A stretch of DNA of 32,571 nucleotides from Ionaspis alba (taxonomy: Eukaryota). The stretch's first letter is position 1, and every line of letters begins with the position of its first letter. The DNA is taken from contig CAXUUL010000102.1 of NCBI GenBank assembly GCA_964255285.1, positions 1 through 32,571 of the forward strand. The letters are read 5' to 3'. The notes under the pieces were generated by a model, which was given only the letters and a program-made list of their open reading frames with translations, had not been told where the DNA came from and searched no databases. The position numbers and the translations under genes were made by a program. Below, piece after piece: positions 628 through 32,292 of the stretch.

Positions 628-1632
628 CTAGGCAGCAAACATCCTTGGTAGATAAGCTCTGGCATTTTCATATACCAGGAACGTAACACAATTGCTAGGC
701 ACAACCCGGAGCAGGTTGGGTCCCAGACCTTTGTAGAAGCCCGGCATGCCCTCTTTCGTCCATATCTGACGTACCACATCTCTTGCACTCCTGTAAGTCT
801 TTTCGGCGTCATATGTTTGTAACCTGGCACGGATGACTTGATAAGGGTATGTCGCGCTTCCAGCGATTATCTTGCTCAAAGCACTGTAGGTCAAAAAGTC
901 CATATTACTCAGTCCCTTGTCTGGTATTTTCATACTGGCTCTTCGGTACTTCTTCATCTGTTCGTAGGCCATGAACTGGAGGGCTCCGTGCGAAACCCCA
1001 AACAAGGACGGCACCAACCCGCGATAGAATCCCCATATACCATCTGCACGGTAGATGCGCTGCGTGCCATCGAACATTGAGGTGTATGCACCAGTATGGC
1101 CTGAGGAAGTAGATAGCATTCGCGTCTTGATGACCCAGATAGGATTTGTCATGAAAGCAGTCAACACTCCTACATTTTTCGTGTCAGGAATCAGTAACGC
1201 TTCGTGGTAGATCAAAGAGCCTACCAGCAGTCCCAGAAGCCAGAAAGTAGTCGTAATATGACAATGTCGACTCTTCCCCATGTCGTTCGGAAAGCCATTG
1301 TTTCACCTTTCCATACCACAAAAAGTAGAGCGCCCAGCTCACAGAGTTTCCGATTAGGTTGGGAGCAAGGCCTCGATAGAAGGCGGGCAAACCTCCTTCG
1401 TTTCGAAGTACATGCTGTGCGATACGAAGGGAAGCGCCCAGTCGAGTTGAGGATGTTCGGTCGACTGAGCAACTGTCAATTGAAGGAACGACAAATTAAA
1501 AGATCAAGACTGACCTTGAAGGCGTGTCTTCAATAGATCGAGAGGATGTACCACAACAGTGGTGGCTACTCCGGCGGTAAAGCCAGCGATGGTTTCGACA
1601 AGTGGTTGGGGAAGCGTACGGTTCTGGTTCAT
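628..1632 (-). CDS. FLX1: Mitochondrial carrier, FAD/folate transporter (Flx1/SLC25A32-like); 3 exons
   Basis: Spliced ORF MNQNRTLPQPLVETIAGFTAGVATTVVVHPLDLLKTRLQ|VDRTSS...FYRGLAPNLIGNSVSWALYF...|NPIWVIKTRMLST...YPYQVIRARLQ...KGLGPNLLRVVPSNCVTFLVYE. It has three PX[DE]XX[KR] carrier repeats, with the NPIWVIKTR variant typical of the FAD/folate subfamily. Two GT-AG introns. Confidence 0.88.
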
Positions 1633-2728: not shown

Positions 2729-3837
2729 ATGTCAGGCGCGAGACACTGGTAGGATATCTGTCCTGGGATAGGTTCATGGCTGACGCACCATAGGGAACAA
2801 GACAAAGAGGCAACGGTCTATATTGGAAATCTTGACGAACGAGTCTCAGACAGCCTGGTATGGGAATTGATGCTCCAAGCTGGTCGCATCGTCAACGTGC
2901 ACCTTCCAAAAGACCGGGTCACTCAGACGCATCAAGGCTATGGCTTCGTGGAATTTATCAGCGAGGAGGATGCCGAGTACGCTGCGAGAATCATGAACCA
3001 AGTCAGGCTGTACGGCAAGCCGATTAGGGTGAACAAAGCTTCAGCAGATAAGCAGAAGACTGTGGAAGTGGGCGCAGAACTGTTCATTGGAAACCTTGAC
3101 CCTATGGTCTCTGAGCAGACGCTGTACGATACCTTCAGTCGTTTTGGGAGCCTTATAGCTGCACCAAAGGTATGGACTGTGATTTCCCATAGTCCTGATC
3201 CTCCTTGCTAAGCGCTCCTCAGGTTGCGCGCGACGATGCCAATTTATCCAAGGGTTACGGATTCGTCTCCTTCTCCAACTTTGATGCCTCGGATGAAGCG
3301 ATAGCGAATCTCAACGGCCAATACTTGATGAACAAGGAGATATCTGTCCAGTACGCGTACAAAAAAGACGGGAAGGGAGAGCGTCATGGTGACCAAGCGG
3401 AGAGGACTCTAGATGCCCAAGCGAGGAAGCACAACGTCCAACCTATCACCCAACCCCTACCAGCCGGCCTCTTCTCGGGTGGAGCGCCTAGCGGTCCGGC
3501 TGCTATGATGGACCCAGAAGTTGCTCGCATGATGGCGAGTACCCCCACTACACCTGGAATGTTTATGGGTGGTAGAGCAGGGCCACCGGTGGGAAGCTAC
3601 CAGAATATGCCCTCATCTCAGCCACAACGACCTCCTCCACCGTCCCAGCCTTTGCCAGCACCGCCGTCGGGGTTGCCGGCACGGCCTCCTCCATCTCAAG
3701 CTGGGTACGGTGGACCACAAGGTTTTCTGCCACCAGGCTTCAATCCTCCTCAACCCCCTAGCTTTGGTCCCCCACCTGGCGCTGCACCAGGACTTCCACC
3801 CGGCTTTCAGCCCGCCCCATTCGTGAGAAATAGGTGA
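2729..3837 (+). CDS. HSH49: Splicing factor 3b subunit 4 (two RRMs plus Pro/Gly-rich tail); 3 exons
   Basis: [61 protein letters not shown]...[21 protein letters not shown], the diagnostic SF3B4/Hsh49 sequence. Confidence 0.96.
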
Positions 3838-6277: not shown

Positions 6278-7664
6278 ATGGTCAAAGCTGGTAAGAGGAT
6301 CTGAATGAGTGAGTATGGGAGTAATTTTTGAATTGACAACCGTTCTAGTCGTTCTTGGAGCTGCCGGTGGCATAGGCCAGGTGAGCTTACCAGACCATTG
6401 GCAAATGTCATGTAGCTAATGGAGACTTGTTTAGCCACTCGCGCTTCTGCTGAAAGCTTGCCCCATCGTCGACGAGCTGTCCCTCTACGATGTTGTCAAC
6501 ACTCCGGGTGTGACGGCAGACCTATCTCACATCTCGTCTGTGGCTGTATGGACTCATCAATCTTCATCAGTGCGCCCATAAGCTGATGTAACGCAGAAAA
6601 TCACGGGCTACCTGCCCAAAGACGATGGATTGAAGCACGCTTTGACCGGCGCCGATGTGATCCTCATTCCAGCAGGCATACCTCGTACGTATCTGCTACT
6701 GTTTTGGCGATGATCTGAATCCTCACCACTGGCCTAGGCAAGCCCGGCATGACCCGTGATGACCTTTTCAAGATCAATGCTGGTATTGTCAAGACTCTGG
6801 TTGAGGGTATTGCAGAGTATAGTCCCAAGGCCTTCATCCTCGTCATTTCCAATCCGGTCAACTCTACCGTTCCTATAGCAGCAGAGGTCATGAAGAAAGC
6901 TGGGGTTTTTGACCCGAAGCGTCTCTTCGGCGTTACGACCCTCGACGTTGTTCGTGCCGAGACTTTTGTCCAAGATATCACAGGGGAGAAAGATCCAGCA
7001 AAGACAGTCATTCCTGTGGTTGGTGGGCATTCTGGGGAAACAATCGTTCCCCTGTTCAGTATGGCAAAGCCTCCTGTGAAGATCCCGGAAGACAAACTTG
7101 ACGCTCTAGTCAACCGTACGTGTCTGGGAACATTCGTTATACGCAAGTGAAGCTGATGATTAGGACAGGTGTCCAGTTCGGTGGTGATGAGGTGGTCAAG
7201 GCCAAAGATGGCGCAGGCTCTGCAACACTATCAATGGCATATGCTGGATTCCGGTAAGAGCCTCATCATACTTCGTTTGATGAAGATTTTGAAGGCTGCT
7301 AACCGGGTGGTGGTACAGCTTCGCGGAGAAAATCATCAAAGCAATGAAGGGCGAAAAGGGAATCGTTGAACCGACATTCGTCTACCTGCCAGGTGTGTCT
7401 GGTGGTGATGCCATTGCGAAGGAAACCGGTGTCGATTACTTCTCTGTACCAGTTGAGCTAGGAGTATGCCATTCTAACCTTCGTTGCTCAATCCTTCGCT
7501 CTATGCTAACCGTTCTAAAGCCATCTGGTGCCGAGTCGGCCAACAATCCTCTGCCACACGTAAACGAGTACGAGAAGAAGCTCCTGAGTGCCTGCACCGC
7601 AGGTTTGAAGGGGAACATCGAGAAGGGCATTGAATTTGTCCACAACCCACCACCACCAAAGTGA
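6278..7664 (+). CDS. MDH: NAD-dependent malate dehydrogenase, non-mitochondrial (cytosolic/peroxisomal) type; multi-exon
   Basis: [22 protein letters not shown]...[19 protein letters not shown]...[15 protein letters not shown]...[15 protein letters not shown]...[12 protein letters not shown]...[23 protein letters not shown]...HNPPPPK*. No N-terminal presequence: there is an in-frame TAG at 6263-6265. Confidence 0.96.
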
Positions 7665-7828
7665 ATTACCCAGCCGGTCTCACCCCTGTTGGTCTCAATT
7701 CTCCTGAAAAGCATGAATTTGACCTGTGGTCTTCAAATTCGTCCATTCCCTTTCCAAAAGCAATAGAGTGAGATTCCGATAATGGTCGAGCCTGTGACTG
7801 ATCGGTGGCGTCTCTAGGTAGACTTTGA
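7661..7828 (+). other. Cryptic terminal intron of MDH with tandem 3' acceptors; the alternative last exon encodes PTS1 (-PKL*)
   Basis: Donor AA|GTGAAT at 7661, branch point GACTGAT at 7796-7802, acceptors TAG 7815-7817 and TAG 7819-7821. The distal splice gives AAA CTT TGA (K-L-stop at 7826-7828). Confidence 0.78.
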
Positions 7829-8043
7829 GCCTGTGTGTCCAGCGGAAATGCAGATATGGAGGTGCATAAGTTGGCCACGTGTATCTAGCAGTCCCATAAA
7901 CAATGCAAGCTCTATGTTGCAATTACCATCTCCCAGTGCAGCCTTTCTAGCCCTTCAGGACATATTTGTAGCAGAGTTTGTGATCGCTTCGTACACTTTG
8001 AGATGTGCTCGGCGCCTTCTAGGTTCCATGGCGTTCCTTTCAT

Positions 8044-8870
8044 TCATGGTTTGGCCGTAACGGTCTTGATTTGAAATGTAGCCCCTGGTAGCTCTGAAGA
8101 CTCAGCCAGGACGGTAGCATCGATGCCCATGCTAGCAAGAGCTCCACGTATGACACCAGAAGGAAACCACAGGAACTAGGAACTCCATCAGTATCTGCTA
8201 CTGTACTGAAAAGAAATTCAACGTACTGGCTGAGCGCGTGTAACAGCTTCTGATGAGGACTGCATGCTCATGCGTGAGAAAGGCTTGAAGCTGTTGTCGG
8301 TGAGAACATAAACACCCTTAAATGAGATTGGCCATTAGTATTTTGCTTCAGTCTCTTGCCCCCGCTAGGATAGAATGGAGCTCTCGTACCCGATGATTTG
8401 TCTTGAGATTATCAATCTGTTTTCGGAATAAAAGCGTCCACATGTCCTTGCATAGAAATTTGATCACATCCAAGGTGTCCATGAACCTGGGCCGATCTCT
8501 TGAGAATCTACAGAAGTCAGCAACGAATTCGAATGCCCGACCATCGCATAGAGATTGCGTCTTCCCAGCTCCCTCACCGATCATCACGATGGGTGGGGCT
8601 GGAGCGCCTGCCGTACGAGGGTCCTCACCTCTCCACCAGACCCTGTCCGACCCGGTATCCCATTGTTTCAAGCCTCCGGAAAGCTGCTTCCCTTTGCTCT
8701 TCCTCGTCTATCTGTCTCGCTCCTCCCTCAGAGCGGATCGAGAGCTCGCCTGCAAGCCGCGTAGCCATGGGGACGAGTTCGATGAGGAGAAGGTCCATAC
8801 AGGACGCGCTGAGGAACGTGGCATAAGGATCCGACGCATTGTAGGGAGGCAGTGGAGAATCGAAAGACAT
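8044..8870 (-). CDS. TRS33: TRAPP complex subunit Trs33 (Bet3 family); 4 exons
   Basis: MSFDSPLPP...[14 protein letters not shown]...[64 protein letters not shown]...|[18 protein letters not shown]...ATFQIKT. Confidence 0.93.
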
Positions 8871-12909: not shown

Positions 12910-15900
12910 ATGCCCTTCAATTTGGTGTCGACCACCTTGTTGGTGGTCGCTAATCTTCTCGTTCCTCTTGCAATCATGATTTTTGCCTCTGGTTTCTTCC
13001 CTTATAAGTCATTCATACCAGGTCGTGCTCATTTTGAGGCTGAGCAAGTTCAATTCGCTACGCGTTCTCCTTTCGATAAGGTTATCTTTATGGTGGTCGA
13101 CGCACTGCGCAGGTTCGCATTAGCCAAGGTCATCTTTCCCACTCAGACTAATGGTTTAGTGATTTTGTATATTCTAACGAATCTAACTTCCTTTATACTC
13201 AGGGGTATTTTTCTACGTGGTCCTCATTTGGTTCCATGCTTGTGGCTGACCTATACGAGCAGACTCATCAGATCAGGAGCAGCCCTTCCATTCACTGCCC
13301 ATGCCATGTCCCCAACCATCACCATGCCTCGCGTCAAGGCCATAACTACAGGATCTGTTCCCTCCTTTCTCGACGTGATCTTGAACTTCGCCGAGTCGGA
13401 CAAGTCATCTACCTTGGCAACTCAAGACACATGGCCTGCACAGTTAGCCGCCTTGCCAGGAGGAAAACTCCTGATGTATGGAGACGACACTTGGCTCAAA
13501 CTCTTTCCAAACACCTTTTCCCGTGCTGATGGTGCATCGAGCTTCTTTGTTTCGGTCAGTACTTTCCTGTGGGTACGATGTAATGTAGCTCAAGTCGTAG
13601 CAGCTGAGAGATCGATGCTAGGATTTTACTGAAGTGGATAACAACGTGACGAGACACATATCGCACGAGCTTGACCAGTCCGATTGGAATGGCATGATAC
13701 TGCATTATCTCGGTCTGGACCATATTGGTCATAAATCCGGGCCTCGAAGGTACCTTAGCATTCTTAGCTTCTCAAATTATATATCGGCTGATAAGTCGCT
13801 AGTCCTCATATGATGCCCAAGCAAGCAGAGATGGATGGCATAGTGAAACAGATTTACAGCGCAATAGAGTCCCAGCCTCATCTCAGGTCAACATTACTCG
13901 TACTTTGCGGAGACCACGGGATGACCAGTACCGGTAATCATGGAGGGTCTGCTGCAGGAGAGACGTCACCAGCCCTAGTCTTTATTTCTCCAAAAATCAA
14001 GACCATCTCCGATGGTTTTGATTGCCCTATCGAGAGCCAGCAAGGAGAGTTTCAGTATTACAAGGTCGTGGAGCAATCCGACATTGCACCTACTCTTGCC
14101 GGCCTCCTGGGGTTTCCAGTCCCCCTAAACAATCTGGGAGCTTTCATTCCAGAACTGCTGCTGTTCTGGTCAACTGGTGAACCGTATACCTTCCATCCAG
14201 CAAGCCCTTGACTGACTGATTGTGCGGACAGACGAGCAGATAAAGCTACTGCAGGAGAATGTCGATCAGGTTCTTGAGGTTGTCCGAGCCACCTTTGGCG
14301 ATGTGTTTCCCGGCAGGGGAGTGGTGTTATCAGACTGTACGCAGTCTACAACAAAACAGGATGACCTACGCTACCGGTGGAGATCAGTGCAAAGCCTGCT
14401 TAGCAATCACAAGGTACCTCCGAGTGATAGGATCAATGAGTTGGCCGAGGTAAGTCATTCAGTCCAATCAACCGGTACCTGAGCTCATAGCACTAAGTTT
14501 TTGCGTTTCGCCCGAGATACTATGAGCGATACTGCAAGTGACTACAATCTGCCCAAGCTCCAGGCTGGAATCATTGTTGCCGGGGCTGCATCTCTGGCAG
14601 CATTCTCTGCTTCTTTTTCTGCCATTCGGATACGCAATGTCGGGGCATCAATCCTCCCGTTGGCATATGGCGTCATGCTCTTTGCGAGTAGCTATGTCGA
14701 AGAGGAACACCACTTTTGGTATTGGGTATCGTCCGCATGGATCTTGTGGCTGTTCTTTGCGCTGTATGATATTATCAGCCTGCGAATCCTGGCCAGTAGC
14801 TAACAGGGTGAGAGTAGTTCACTACGCGGAAGCAGGACTCGTACCGCTCGGGCAGGCTTTTTGATCGCTTTATTGGCCATCTCCCGGCTTGTGCATCGCT
14901 GGAATCAGACAGGTCAGAAACATGCTGCAGATCCTGACATAGGGAGAACGTTCATGACTAAACATAACTTGATCCTCTGGGGTCTTGTAACGATAGCATT
15001 CTTAGACCTTGCTCGCCGCTTGGCTCTTTATGGGCTACCACGAGCACCACGCCAAGTCTCCAGCATTGTAGCGGTTGCGTTGTGTCTCTCGGCTGTTGGT
15101 TTCAAAGTGGCATTCACGAAAGCCGATGCCCCTGAGCTATTGAGCGATGTGCCCCAGTACGTCTTAACACCTATGGTGGAAACGCCACTGGTCACACATG
15201 TCCGGACAATATTCCTTGGAATCACCTTATCATTGGTGTATGGCTGCTTCCAACGAGTTTACTGGACATCACAATCAAGAGCAACCAGGCTTGGTTCGTG
15301 AATATATTCCGCCGAAAAACAAGTCTTCGCTCGCTAAAGTTTACAGGGGTTGAATGGGCCGTTCATGACCTCCTCACGGTCTTTTTAGTAACGCAGAGCA
15401 GAGCCAACAACATCCCTCTTTTCCTGCTCTTCCATCTGGAGCTTCAAATTCTCGGCTCGCTCGATCTCCATCCGGAAGAAATATCAATAACTTCGTTGAT
15501 ATTCCAACACACTTCGTTTTTCGCATTCGGGGGGTCCAACGCCATCTCTTCCATTGATCTCTCCAACGCTTACAATGGAATCACCGGCTACAACGTCCTC
15601 GGCGTGGGTGCCTTAACATTCATCAGTAACTGGGTAGGACCAATCTGGTGGGCATCGGCGGCTGTTCAGCTCATATTGTACGGACCGTATTCGGAGCAGA
15701 AGAATGTCTTTCGGCACCATGTCTCCTTGCTCACCACCTTCACCGCCAGCAGTATATTCTTCGTCATGCTTGCGTGCACCTCGCTCCGAACGCATTTGTT
15801 CATCTGGACGGTCTTCTCACCGAAATTTCTCTATAGCATGGCTTGGGCCTTGGGACAGCACCTCTGCATAAACATCGCCATGAGTAGTCTCCTGTATTGG

Positions 15901-15930
15901 GTAGGTTCAGGGGGGATAGTTGATATGTAG
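12910..15930 (+). CDS. GPI7: GPI ethanolamine-phosphate transferase 2 (PIG-G/Gpi7); about 9 exons
   Basis: FASGFFPYK, FDKVIFMVVDALRSDF, PTITMPRVKAITTGSVPSFLDVILNF, LHYLGLDHIGHK, LCGDHGMTSTGNHGGS, QSDIAPTLAGL, FASSYVEEEHHFWYW, GGSNAISSIDLSNAYNG, LRTHLFIWTVFSPKFLY. Confidence 0.94.
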
Positions 15931-21800: not shown

Positions 21801-24156
21801 ATGCCGGCGGTGCTCGACCCTCGGAGCGAATTGGACCATCTGGTGCAGCAGGTAAGTAAGTCGGACTCGATCTCTGGTCCGGGACGATCCTGACCTCTGC
21901 CAGATTGTTCTCGCGCCTTCCGACAACGAGTACTTCGATCAGCTCATCCCCGCGATCAAGGATGCTAGCAAGGATGGCAGGGGGTATCAGCTCCTTCAGT
22001 GCCTCTCCCAGTTCTCTGACGACCGTGAGTCGGAGATCGAGAGGATCTGCAATACGAACCACCAAGACTTCACTTCCTCCGTCAATCAGCTTCTACGAGT
22101 CCGAGAGGGTACTGTCAAACTCACCTCGGAGATTCAGAACCTCAACCAGGCAATTCAATCGAGCACAGAAAAACTTGCGGAACAGAAGAAGGCTCTGGTC
22201 GAGTCGCGAGGGATCCGTCAGAACATAGACGAGACCACGCGAGCGTTGAATGACTGTTTGGAAGTTCTGCGCCTCGCCAATCAGGTGCATGATCTTCTAG
22301 CCAAGAAGAGCCATTACGCTGCCCTCAGGGCCCTCGACGAATTGCAGAACGTGCATCTTCGGGAGATCACGCAGTACAAGATTGCGGAGATGATCCAGAA
22401 GTCCGTACCGGCCACCAAGAAACTCATTGCGGATGCAGTCATGACAGATCTCAATACCTGGCTCTTTCGCATACGGGAGACCTCGCAGTTCCTGGGCGAA
22501 GTAGCATTCTACCACACAGAACAGCGGCGGACTCGCCTGAAGGATCGGGCCGAGAAGTTCAGTTATCTGGGCACCTTTAAGCTCAACTCAGCCATCGAGT
22601 TGGTTTCCGACGAAAATGTAGAGTTCGACACCCTCGATAACGAGGACGTTCAGGTCGATTTCACTCCCTTGTTTGAATGTCTACACATCCACGATGCATT
22701 GGGTCAGACAGAGAGATTTCGTGCGGATTATGCGGCAACCAGAAGGCAGCAGAAGGAGCTCCTGATGCCAGCTTCCATTACCTTGATTGACTCGGAAGAA
22801 TCGAGCCTCAGTGAATTACTTGAAGGTATTGCCGGATTCGCTATCGTGGAAAAAGCCACGATGAAGAAAGCCCCCGGTCTACGCTCGACGGCGGATGTGG
22901 ATGAGCTTTGGGACTCTATGTGTCAGGCAGCGATTGGTCTCATTGCGAAAGCTTTGCATGAAGTTGATAATGCTGAGATACTCCTCAAGATCAAAGGGGT
23001 CGTAGCTCTCTTCATCCAAACCATGGAGTCTTGGGGCTATCCTGTGGGTGCTCTGGACACTTTCTTGCTGACGCTATTCGACAAGTATGCCGAGTTGCTC
23101 AAAAGAAGGTTCAGCGATGATTTCCAAGAGATCGTTTCGACCGACGACTACATGCCCATGCCGATTAACAACATAGATGAATACGATAAGGTGGTGAATG
23201 TTAGTTGGTATACTCCGGATAAAGCACGCGATGATTTGAGGTTTCCATGCGTCCTGCCGTTCTCTCAGATGTACCCCCTATGCTGCATCGACATTCGAAA
23301 CTTCTTGAATCAATTTTACTTCTTTTCGGACGATCATTTTCAACAGCCAAGGGTCATTGACGATACACTCAAGGCTTCACTGGATGAACTTCTCTCGGAG
23401 AAAGTGTGCAAATCACTGGTCGAACGACTCAGCTCGCAGTACCTCGGTCAAATAGTCCAGATCCTCATCAACCTGGAGCATTTCGAGACAGCATGTCAGG
23501 AACTGGAGCTGTTGCTTGTAGCCGCAAGGTCTTCAAGCTCCGCAGGCGGAAGTATTGTGCTGAATGCAACGGACAATTTCCGCAGCAACAAGAAGACGGC
23601 CGAGAAGCGCATTTTCGAATTGGTCAACTCCAAGATCGATGACTTGATCGAGACGGCGGAATATGATTGGACTGCCCACATTCTCGAAAGGGAGGCCAGC
23701 AATTACATGCAAACCCTGACCCAATACCTCTCCAATATCATGACAACGGTTCTCCTCGGCCTGCCAACAGAGATCAAGGAACTGATCTACTTCGATGCAT
23801 TGAGCCACGCAGCTACCATGATCCTATCCTTGCCCTTGTCGTCCGAAGTGAAGCGGATCAATCCGAACGGCGTCGCTGCTCTTGCCAAGGACGTTCGCTA
23901 CCTCTCTGACTTTGTCGACACCCTTGGGAATCCGATACTGCAGGAAACACTTGACGAATTGCAGCAAACGGTCATGTTGATGCAAGCGGACAATTCGGAT
24001 GAATTCTACGATATCTCGACAAGGAACAAGAAGTACGGGCGAGTCGATGCAATGAACGGGCCGCTACTGCTCGAAAAGCTCACATACAGCGTGCAGAGTC
24101 CCACCAGAGCTGAGAAACTTACAGGCGCGTTCTCTTCGAAATTTGGCTACCACTAA
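21801..24156 (+). CDS. SEC15: Exocyst subunit Sec15; 2 exons (intron 21852-21903)
   Basis: MPAVLDPRSELDHLVQQ|IVLAPSDNEYFDQLIPAIKDA...IERICNTNHQDF...VDFTPLFECLHIHDALG...DDYMPMPI...LPFSQMYPLCC...QIVQILINLEHFETAC...KRIFELVNSKIDDLIETAEYDW. Confidence 0.93.
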
Positions 24157-24366: not shown

Positions 24367-25629
24367 TCAGCCAACCTCATAGTCACGATCCCCCTCAGCG
24401 TCCGCGTCTCCTTCGCCACCATCGTGCCGCTGATAATGATGGCCTTGACCTTGGCTTCCTGCTGTGTCCTGGCCTCGCTGGTTCACCTGGTACATCTGTT
24501 GTCCAGAGATTAGCTTGGATGCTTGGCAAGGGAAGAGGTGGATTTGGCATATTAAAATCCAGGAATTGAACTAACCTGTTGAGCAGCCATTGGGGGATAC
24601 CCATACATTTCCCCGAACATTTGCTGTCCTGGTTGACCATACGCATGCGTTGGGTCCGGTGGTACCTGTGGAGCGTACAGCGACGGTTGTTGTCTATATT
24701 CCTCCCCCGGCTGCAGTGAACTATGACCCATATAATCTGGAGGAGCCATGGGATGCTGTTGCGCAGCTTGCTGATGCGGAAGTTGCTGCTGCTGCTGGAC
24801 GTTGCCCTGCGGCGCCTGCACTTGGTTCGGCACTGCTTGCGCTGCGCCGCCACTGCCACCGCCCTGCCCACCCGATCGTTTGGCGTGGCTGGTCGCCTCT
24901 TCGCGGGGAACGATATCGATGAGGAAATCGAACATGTCGGACTTCGCTAATGCCGACGCGATGTCTGACCGCTGGAGAGTTCTCCGTTTGTTCTCTTCTG
25001 CGTGGATCCAGGCGCGCATCGTGAGCTCGGTGATGAAGATGTCGCATCCTTTGGCGAACAGAATCGGTGCTTCGGCGGATATCATCTTCACCTCCGGATC
25101 CGCTTTCATGACTTTTTTGATCCTGGCGAGGGGTAATTGGTGGATTTTGTAGTCGTGGGTGTCATTCTCGAGGTGGAGGATCATCTGCTGCCAGTATGTG
25201 CGGAGAATGTCGCTATAATTGCCATGCAGGCCCTGGTGTACCTTCTGTTGATTTAGTCCACACTGTTGAATGCAAACAGATACCCAAGCTACATACATTG
25301 AGCCAGGTTCCTTGGTATAGATCGGCGCTTGGTGCGTGGCCTTGCGCGGCAAGCTTTCATACCTGTCAGCGAGGTCATGTTCTTTCCTCAGATTGACTTG
25401 AGGACGTGTTCTTTGTATACGTACAGCAGCACTCGCGCCTGCAATTGAGATCTCCTATTAGCAATTTTCTACAATGGTAGTGTTCAGGGCGTAATGCAAT
25501 GAATTGAGTACCTGTTTGCCGATGACAGGTGGTGGGTGGGAACATACCGTAGTGTCCATTATTGGTTGGATCGTACGCCGGCTGCTGGCGCGTCTGTGAT
25601 TGCCCGGCGACCGGCGGATTGGATTCCAT
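24367..25629 (-). CDS. hapE: CCAAT-binding complex subunit NF-YC (HapE/Hap5); 5 exons including a 14-nt micro-exon
   Basis: Histone fold: [82 protein letters not shown]-terminus: MESNPP...GHYG|ASAA|LAAQG. The last exon ends DRDYEVG*. Confidence 0.95.
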
Positions 25630-30579: not shown

Positions 30580-30917
30580 ATTTAGACGGTCAAGAAGACT
30601 GCGATGCTGTACGGGAAATCTATACGCATAGCGCTGGGTCATCTAATCCATCCAATATCATAATATACTGCTCGAAGCTCCATATTTCAGTGACTGTAGC
30701 AACGGAAAGTAGATGTCGCCTCCCTGACCTGAAGCTGTCAATATGTCCATAGAATCGAACAAAACATTTTCCCTATTCCATATCGTACATGGAGCTCAGT
30801 CCAGCTAAGTTTGGGGCCTCGTTGATGCAGGAACATTTGCGGTTGGGGAAGCGCAAGCGCGGAATGAGTACCGCGGCGTCATCAACATCCGTCCCTCTCA
30901 AAGCGTACGGTCCGGTA

Positions 30918-32292
30918 ATGTTTTCAACGCGACGGCATGGAGCTGCGAGATACATTATCCCGAAACTGTCAGCCAATAATTCCCGCCGTATTACCTGCAA
31001 GCAGTTCCTTCGACATGAATCCTCAAATGCTAGCCAAGTCATTTTCTCTGGTATTCAACCTACTGGCGTTCCTCACCTCGGCAACTACCTAGGTGCCCTG
31101 CAACATTGGGTGCATTTACAGAACAATGCTACACCTACCACCAGACTATTCTTCTCCATCGTAGATCTGCATGCCATTACCCTTCGTCAGAATAGGGAGG
31201 ACTTGCAGCGATGGAAGAGAGAGACATTAGCTACACTATTGGCCGTGGGGCTGGATCCCCAAAGAAGTACCATCTTCTTCCAGTCTGACGTATGCTTCTG
31301 CCACAGTCTCACTCTCTTATTGACACCACAATCTGAGATCCTAATTAATCCTTGTCTAGGTGCCTGCTCATAGTGAGATGATGTGGATTTTAAGCTGCAC
31401 AGCCTCTATGGGTTATCTCTCCAGAATGACACAATGGAAGGTACTGCTTCCATCTTAATTCTCGGTGTCCTTCTCTCTTTTCCCGGATGAGGCTGATCAT
31501 GATCAGAGTAAATTGGCTCTTCAGGATGACATATCTCCTCTGGATCCCAGTGCCAGAGCCACGCTAAAACTCGGTCTATTCTCTTATCCAGTTTTGCAAG
31601 CGGCAGACATCCTCGTTCACAAGTATATCAGACGGAATTATGTTTTGTTCCATTGACTTAAGGTTCTTAGGGCAACACACGTTCCTGTCGGAGATGACCA
31701 GTCTCAGCACCTTGAATTCGCCCGTGAGTGCGCAAGCAATTTCAATAGTATATATGGCGATACACTTGTTTCTCCAAGCACTATATTATGTAGGTACTAT
31801 CCCTTCGGGTACGTGTCACAGACGGCTGATCATCCTCCAGCACCAGCAAAACGGGTAATGTCACTCAAAGAGCCCTTACGTAAGATGTCGAAGTCCCACG
31901 ACGACCCTCGTTCGAGGATTCTACTTACCGACCAGCCCGAGGAGATCAATCGCAAGATCAAGCATGCCCTTACTGACTCGAGGTCTGATGTATCCTACGA
32001 TCCTGTTGGTCGCCCTGGAGTCTCAAATCTGCTGGACATATGGAGTCATCTAGATGAGTACAAAAGGTCCCCTGAAAACCTTGCCAGTGACCTAGGCAAC
32101 GCTAGTATGAGAGTGTTCAAAGAAAGAGTCGCAGCAGCTGTGATAGATGGTTTGGCGGGCATAAGACAAATGTATTCAGAGCTTGTGGAAAATGAAGGGG
32201 CTTTGACGGGGATCGCTGAACGTGGAGCGATAGAAGCGAGGAAAAGTGCAGATCTGACTTTAGGTACCATCAAAGATAGAATTGGATTATAA
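30918..32292 (+). CDS. MSW1: Mitochondrial tryptophanyl-tRNA synthetase; 5 exons
   Basis: IFSGIQPTGVPHLGNYLGAL, IVDLHAIT, FFQSD|VPAHSE, LGLFSYPVLQAADILVH, VPVGDDQSQHLEF, RVMSLKEPLRKMSKS. MFSTRRHG... resembles a presequence. The start is uncertain because in-frame ATGs also occur at 30789, 30825 and 30864. Confidence 0.93.

Follow-up and report, generated by a model that had tools for sequence, protein, structure and literature searches.

The window analyzed here, a 32,571-nt stretch (contig CAXUUL010000102.1, positions 1–32,571) from the genome assembly of Ionaspis alba (GCA_964255285.1), contains a gene for NAD-dependent malate dehydrogenase (MDH) whose last lysine codon and stop codon overlap a splice donor. 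Two acceptors, 4 nt apart, follow downstream, and splicing to the second of them extends the protein by exactly one leucine. We consider it likely that this gene is the Lecanoromycete-like (lichen-forming) orthologue of a conserved MDH splice switch, by which one gene supplies both cytosolic and peroxisomal MDH. Through this leucine, a share of the enzyme is very probably directed to peroxisomes. The finding opens no new mechanism: in the published accounts cited below, RNA-seq had documented such single-gene switches for one species of Pezizomycotina and for two early-branching yeasts, and the single-leucine switch is now seen to be present in lichen-type fungi as well. What is added is a comparative count, together with a reminder that annotation routinely misses the isoform.

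In the mechanism that we propose, the weak donor (A at position +5) would make intron retention the default, translation would end at ...PPPPK, and most MDH would stay in the cytosol. Whenever the donor was used, the spliceosome would choose between the two AGs. The first AG past the branch site would rebuild the lysine codon followed by a TAG stop, giving the same cytosolic protein. The second AG, borrowed from the TAG stop of the proximal form itself, would rebuild the lysine and add the leucine to give -PKL. This form would be imported via PEX5, and MDH inside the peroxisome would regenerate NAD+ (NAD+/NADH shuttling for β-oxidation) and serve the glyoxylate cycle.

The MDH gene and its optional terminal intron

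The gene model that we built and translated encodes a protein of 331 residues with the C-terminus HNPPPPK. The N-terminus opens straight into the GxGxxG nucleotide-binding fold, and the protein thus has no mitochondrial presequence. Exon 5 matches Pfam Ldh_1_N and Ldh_1_C and is 82–93% identical to fungal MDHs of 329–333 residues, some of them named cytoplasmic. Identity is 90–92% to the MDHs of lichen-forming Lecanoromycetes (Ptychographa, Lignoscripta, Xylographa and Schaereria) and 82–88% to those of Dothideomycetes and Eurotiomycetes. The Pfam domains, the identity over exon 5 and the lack of a presequence together identify the host gene as a non-mitochondrial NAD-MDH. Its seven internal introns are 51–65 nt long and all GT..AG, and G occupies donor position +5 in every one (7/7). 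Introns 6 and 7 are confirmed by contigs of sequencing run X1, which join across them; run X1 therefore behaves as RNA.

The coding sequence ends CAC AAC CCA CCA CCA CCA AAG TGA (7641–7664), and the optional intron begins within the AAG (Table 1). Scripted translation of the three possible forms gave ...HNPPPPK for retention, the same ...HNPPPPK for the 7660/7818 junction, and ...HNPPPPKL for the 7660/7822 junction. A sequence-only reading of the window had described these outcomes, two ending in ...PPPK and one adding a single leucine, and our translations reproduce them. It had also placed AAG TGA, the donor GTGAAT (7661), the branch motif GACTGAT (7796–7802) and the two AGs (7817 and 7821), all correctly to the base.

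Could this end of the gene yield a peroxisomal form through readthrough of its stop codon, the route of mammalian MDH1, instead of through splicing? A C-terminal peroxisomal targeting signal (PTS1) produced by readthrough at UGA CU is described for MDH1, LDHB and fungal glycolytic enzymes (PMC4207609). In the window, however, the context is TGA AT, not TGA CT, and the 33-residue extension ends in ...QKQ, which is not a PTS1. A readthrough-derived PTS1 of this type was therefore rejected, and we regard the explanation as extremely improbable.

Conservation across orthologues

Short motifs such as GT, AG and CTRAY are frequent, and splice-like motifs could fall by accident into a 3' untranslated region (UTR), where the other AGs of the window give short random tails. 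Is the arrangement, then, due to chance? From an alignment of the last-exon peptide to 13 orthologous C-termini we retrieved 80 metagenome loci that encode this exon; with the window included, they form 59 distinct clusters. In 46 of the 59, the terminal AAG is followed by a stop codon that begins with T, and these clusters therefore have a GT at the same place as the window (an AAG/T donor). An AG 30–300 nt downstream was counted as a Lys-Leu-stop (KL) acceptor when splicing to it put Lys, Leu and a stop in frame. Control sequences kept the 'AA' exon end and were scored for acceptors that give Lys, then Leu, Met or Ile, then a stop.

KL acceptors are present in 41 of the 46 donor-bearing clusters, and in 34 of the 46 an acceptor that restores Lys-stop lies exactly 4 nt upstream. 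In contrast, decoy regions 700–970 nt downstream gave such acceptors at 0/473 AGs (0/29 loci), and the reverse complements of the real regions at 3/872 AGs (3/46 loci). These counts, together with conserved islands within otherwise unalignable sequence, led us to reject a chance arrangement, whose probability we take to be negligible. The sequence-only reading had called the arrangement hard to explain by chance and had named conservation of the tandem acceptor and leucine codon as a check on it; the counts agree on both points.

The codon added by distal splicing encodes leucine in all 41 loci, using all six leucine codons (TTA 10, CTT 9, CTG 8, CTC 6, CTA 5, TTG 3), and a stop follows directly (TGA 23, TAA 16, TAG 2). 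Across these loci the terminal intron is 51–242 nt long; a CTRAY motif lies 8–50 nt before the start of the distal exon in 35/41, and the heptamer YAG-RTAG or AAG-RTAG precedes the distal exon in 34/41. When eight lichen-type loci were aligned, only three islands were conserved: the donor, a CTGA branch motif and an AG-RTAG-RYTNTRA block. Because six leucine codons and three stops occur at the site while only the donor, the CTGA motif and the acceptor block align, the sequences indicate that selection acts on the encoded residue, at the protein level, and not on an RNA element. In most of the environmental Pezizomycotina orthologues sampled, the switch is kept under such selection.

This pattern also bears on the idea that the intron is spliced for the sake of mRNA regulation (3' end, stability or translation), with the -KL isoform as a tolerated by-product that is not targeted. 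Splicing to the proximal site leaves the protein unchanged, so splicing as such could matter, and the literature cited here reports no localization of a Pezizomycotina MDH isoform. But mRNA regulation fails to explain why leucine is constant through six codons, with the stop always directly after it. It also fails to explain why the residue before the lysine (position -3 of the KL form) is limited to A, Q, P, S or T (14, 12, 10, 3 and 2 of the 41 loci, respectively). In Yarrowia lipolytica, moreover, the MDH isoforms localize as predicted (PMC3372373). We hold this explanation to be very unlikely.

The switch also occurs in variant forms. Seven of the 41 KL clusters have no proximal acceptor (L003, L006 with L008, L010, L013, L022, L032 and L059), with the KL acceptor about 155–210 nt after the stop, which leaves them two options only, to retain the intron or to make -KL. 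L003, L006, L010, L013 and L022 have in common the C-terminus HNPPAK and donors GTGATT or GTAATT. In L051/L052 and L064/L066, a second Lys-Leu-stop acceptor (gag/ATTATGA) at +166/+170 lies 22 nt past the tandem and is common to the two clusters. In L038/L050 and L055 (ending -NPPSK), an acceptor 53 nt past the donor (tag/GTGAGC) rebuilds AAG TGA together with a new donor-like GTGAGC. No KL acceptor was found in these within 700 nt (for L055, within the <200 nt of downstream sequence), and they would represent an arrangement that is nested or recursive, or else loss of the switch.

Spliced forms in relatives and in protein databases

Several of the environmental loci resemble transcripts. The terminal lysine codon is AAA in six clusters that have no AAG/T donor (L009, L033, L043, L044, L070 and L077) and in 0/46 donor-bearing loci. 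L009 is ~94% identical to the genomic loci L045 and L017 but lacks one upstream intron and exactly a 54-nt proximal intron; its junction reads AA/A TAG, followed by the unused Leu-stop block. L070, 90–95% identical to genomic L060, lacks five upstream introns and a 67-nt proximal intron. L058 is a retention mRNA: the upstream introns found in its relative L078 are absent, but the terminal intron is present together with its two acceptors. L079 is without the upstream intron of L045, ends in ...PPPKL with TTA TAG, and is the distal form. With L009 and L070 spliced to the proximal site, L058 retained and L079 distal, environmental relatives thus have transcript-like contigs for each of the three products. 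Among the 80 loci, no transcript-like contig could be paired with a genomic one from its own species; the best pairs, L009/L045 and L070/L060, are close relatives at the identities just given.

Two of the proximal-spliced clusters carry a different downstream block: use of the distal site would give -PKF in L043 and -KLTRS in L077. As far as these sequences tell, a clean Leu-stop is not kept in every lineage.

How do protein databases represent these isoforms? The conserved C-terminus is found in 106 database orthologues; 91 of them finish with -K, five with -KL and 10 in other ways. The -KL ends are -PKL twice (one from Malbranchea), -TKL (Histoplasma H88), -AKL and -EKL. We considered whether such entries represent a separate peroxisomal paralogue. 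Identity is 98% between P0013 (-KL) and P0010 (-K) and 90% between P0078 (-KL) and P0087 (-K), and the paralogue was rejected in favor of isoforms or orthologues. Standard annotation misses the -KL isoform, as the sequence-only reading had anticipated, and the gene catalogues for these fungi under-report peroxisomal MDH. With 91/106 orthologues ending in -K, metabolic reconstructions of such genomes that list 'no peroxisomal MDH' are therefore likely to be in error.

Comparison with known systems

The closest counterpart is the MDH of Aspergillus fumigatus, for which Hurtig et al. (2020, RNA 26:1464, PMC7491326) used RNA-seq to describe three mRNAs, of which the annotated and abundant form retains the final intron. 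In their account, the proximal 3' site alters only the wobble base and the stop, leaving the protein the same, and the distal site, 4 nt further, adds a single residue to create a putative PTS1. They regard this arrangement as ancestral to those of Y. lipolytica MDH2 and Lipomyces starkeyi MDH. As described there, A. fumigatus is like the window in that a non-mitochondrial NAD-MDH has a donor at its last codon and stop, a retained form, a proximal form with the same protein and a distal form with one more residue. It differs in being a Eurotiomycete, whereas the window gene is Lecanoromycete-like, and the RNA-seq support lies on its side. The proximal and distal sites are AAG and UAG in A. fumigatus (PMC7491326), and TAG and the AG of GTAG in the window. 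The sequence-only interpretation as a splice switch is thus supported by the conservation in 41/46 clusters, the spliced contigs of relatives and the A. fumigatus RNA-seq description. Its novelty was overrated, since the identical architecture, as reported, had already been published for a Pezizomycotina species.

For Y. lipolytica MDH2, also named as a precedent in that reading and borne out as one, two isoforms were localized with fluorescent tags (Kabran et al., 2012, DNA Res 19:231, PMC3372373). One gene there serves cytosol and peroxisome, as proposed for the window gene; the 3' sites of the last intron are 4 nt apart, and only the distal one yields a PTS1. Unlike in the window, the Y. 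lipolytica intron is, by this account, always removed, and the proximal product ends in -PAN against -AKI for the distal one, not identical to a retention protein. Of the yeasts that Kabran et al. examined, Y. lipolytica was by their report the only one with the event; PMC3597508 simply cites them. In L. starkeyi MDH, retention is described as giving the cytosolic form and a single acceptor the PTS1 (PMC7491326), which matches the 7/41 clusters without a proximal AG, whereas the window keeps both acceptors. Saccharomyces cerevisiae reaches the same outcome, cytosolic and peroxisomal (-SKL) MDH, through two unspliced duplicate genes, MDH2 and MDH3, according to PMC3798809 and PMC7491326. The window has the features common to the A. 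fumigatus and Y. lipolytica type, namely a donor at the last codon and stop, tandem acceptors and a conserved coding outcome. Beyond PMC7491326 and PMC3372373, literature searches turned up no wider study of this MDH switch across filamentous fungi, though the supplement of PMC7491326 and Freitag et al. 2012 may list more cases.

Other fungal enzymes offer a parallel in principle. Cryptic PTS1s are reportedly created by alternative splicing or readthrough in fungal GAPDH and PGK, in work attributed to Freitag et al. (Nature 485:522, 2012). As proposed for the window gene, an abundant cytosolic enzyme acquires a C-terminal PTS1 in one of its minor isoforms. However, the enzymes are others, and the PTS1 comes from extensions of several residues or from readthrough at UGA CU, not from one added residue.

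Predicted use of the switch in I. alba

Several observations weigh against an active switch with a peroxisomal product in I. alba. The terminal donor has A at +5 where all seven constitutive MDH donors have G, and the optional intron is 2.5–3 times the length of the other MDH introns; for both reasons, splicing of the terminal intron may be rare in the window gene. No sequencing run recorded as RNA was found to contain the stretch, and no contig of run X1 or X2 bridges the 7660/7661 boundary: contig cover in X1 ends at 7668, 8 nt past the donor and short of the 31 nt required for a joint, with nothing over 7669–7830. This in itself is neither for nor against splicing at the 7660/7818 and 7660/7822 junctions. 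Room for the MDH 3' UTR and poly(A) site is limited to a few hundred bases by a convergent gene, which encodes a TRAPP-complex subunit.

Orthologues add to this list. Five of the 46 donor-bearing clusters have no KL acceptor (L004, L005, L038, L040 and L055), the downstream sequence in hand being <200 nt for L040 and L055 and only 229 nt for L005. Thirteen of the 59 clusters have no AAG/T donor, seven of them resembling processed mRNAs and six stopping a residue sooner or otherwise diverging at the end: L041, L046 and L053 in -NPPS or -SPPS, L065 and L076 in -NPPQ, and L054 in -KPE. No PTS1-creating acceptor was found within 450 nt in these six, which are apparent lineage losses of the switch. 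Some lineages have thus lost it, so finding the motif does not prove that it is used.

The last of these reservations concern the targeting signal. The strict PTS1 consensus is (S/A/C)-(K/R/H)-(L/M), and -PKL, with proline at -3, falls outside it and belongs to the documented relaxed set. Upstream positive charge usually helps weak PTS1s, and the four prolines before -KL carry none. On the other side, -PKL is described as enough to bring mNeonGreen into the peroxisomes of Histoplasma (PMC13343957) and is cited as working in humans, in yeast and in Penicillium chrysogenum (PMC3709128). By analogy, PEX5 should recognize -PKL as a PTS1 variant. The sequence-only reading had treated -PKL as a recognized variant, for which these two sources provide documentation outside the strict consensus.

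Is the arrangement perhaps an inherited relic that is hardly used? Nearly all mRNA would then retain the intron, and peroxisomal MDH would be supplied otherwise, by another gene or by piggy-back import. The donor GTGAAT, the intron of 157–161 nt against 51–65 nt for the others, and the losses in other lineages would all fit such a relic. However, all elements are intact in the window. Donors just as weak are found in its nearest relatives (GTGAAC in L001, GTAAAC in L002, GTGAAT in the seven contigs of L023), yet these keep the Leu-stop block, which is unexpected without selection. In A. fumigatus, too, retention is reported as the major form, and spliced forms are still detected (PMC7491326). 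We therefore judge a relic unlikely and favor the conserved switch, with both sites presumably used in I. alba, an isoform ratio that would lean towards retention, and a -PKL form that would enter peroxisomes.

Position +5 is A or T in the window and in L001, L002, L023, L003, L006, L010, L013 and L022, and the donor in lichen-forming fungi is unusually weak. One could go further and propose that the proximal acceptor is a conserved decoy. Paired with a donor kept weak on purpose, it would allow two independent dials, one for whether the intron is spliced at all and one for the choice of AG, and these would set the peroxisomal share of MDH while total MDH stays unchanged. In lichen-forming fungi the first dial may be the regulated one, by carbon source or symbiotic state. 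We offer this extension tentatively and think it rather doubtful; if it were true, loss of the proximal AG (7/41 clusters) and losses of the whole switch would mark shifts in peroxisomal metabolism.

Genomic surroundings

The other genes recognized in the window are an ordinary fungal housekeeping and chromosomal context (Table 1). A block near window position 8305 (gttgtcggtgag/AACATAAACA) recurs 610–673 nt past the MDH donor in L006, L010, L013, L022, L023 and L038, and the MDH-TRAPP neighborhood is therefore syntenic there.

Table 1. Features of the window, with positions counted from its first nucleotide; a slash marks a splice boundary.
Feature	Position	Strand	Remark
MDH gene, NAD-dependent, non-mitochondrial type	6278..7664	+	Eight exons; model built and translated
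MDH exons	6278-6290, 6349-6380, 6435-6545, 6597-6684, 6738-7115, 7169-7253, 7319-7463, 7521-7664	+	Gene model
Last Lys codon AAG (7659-7661) and stop TGA (7662-7664), overlapping weak donor AA/GTGAAT (from 7661)	7659..7666	+	Last base of the upstream exon would be 7660
Optional intron, proximal form, 157 nt	7661..7817	+	Junction 7660/7818 gives AA+G TAG, ...PPPPK-stop
Optional intron, distal form, 161 nt	7661..7821	+	Junction 7660/7822 gives AA+A CTT TGA, ...PPPPKL-stop
Branch-site motif GACTGAT	7796..7802	+	CTGAT core 7797-7801, 16 nt before proximal AG
Tandem 3' splice site TAG/GTAG, AGs ending at 7817 and 7821	7815..7821	+	Stop TAG of the proximal form is the source of the distal AG
Distal-form coding end, seven bases: A (Lys third base), CTT (Leu), TGA (stop)	7822..7828	+	Translation
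TRAPP-complex subunit gene, convergent to MDH	8268-8707	-	Pfam TRAPP on 8351-8707
Mitochondrial carrier	631-1302	-	Open frame match
RRM protein	3199-3834	+	Open frame match
PIGO/PIGG membrane region	15136-15927	+	Open frame match
Exocyst Sec15	21856-24153	+	Open frame match
Histone-fold NF-Y-type protein	24555-25454	-	Open frame match
Class I (Trp/Tyr) tRNA synthetase	30753-32289	+	Open frame match

A DNA sequencing run, X2, contains two contig versions of 6385–6494 and of 7057–7206 at similar depth, one equal to the window and the other with 6–7 differences, which suggests two haplotypes or strains in the X2 sample. Inside the optional intron, the variation in X2 amounts to a single difference, T to C at 7793, outside the splice motifs.

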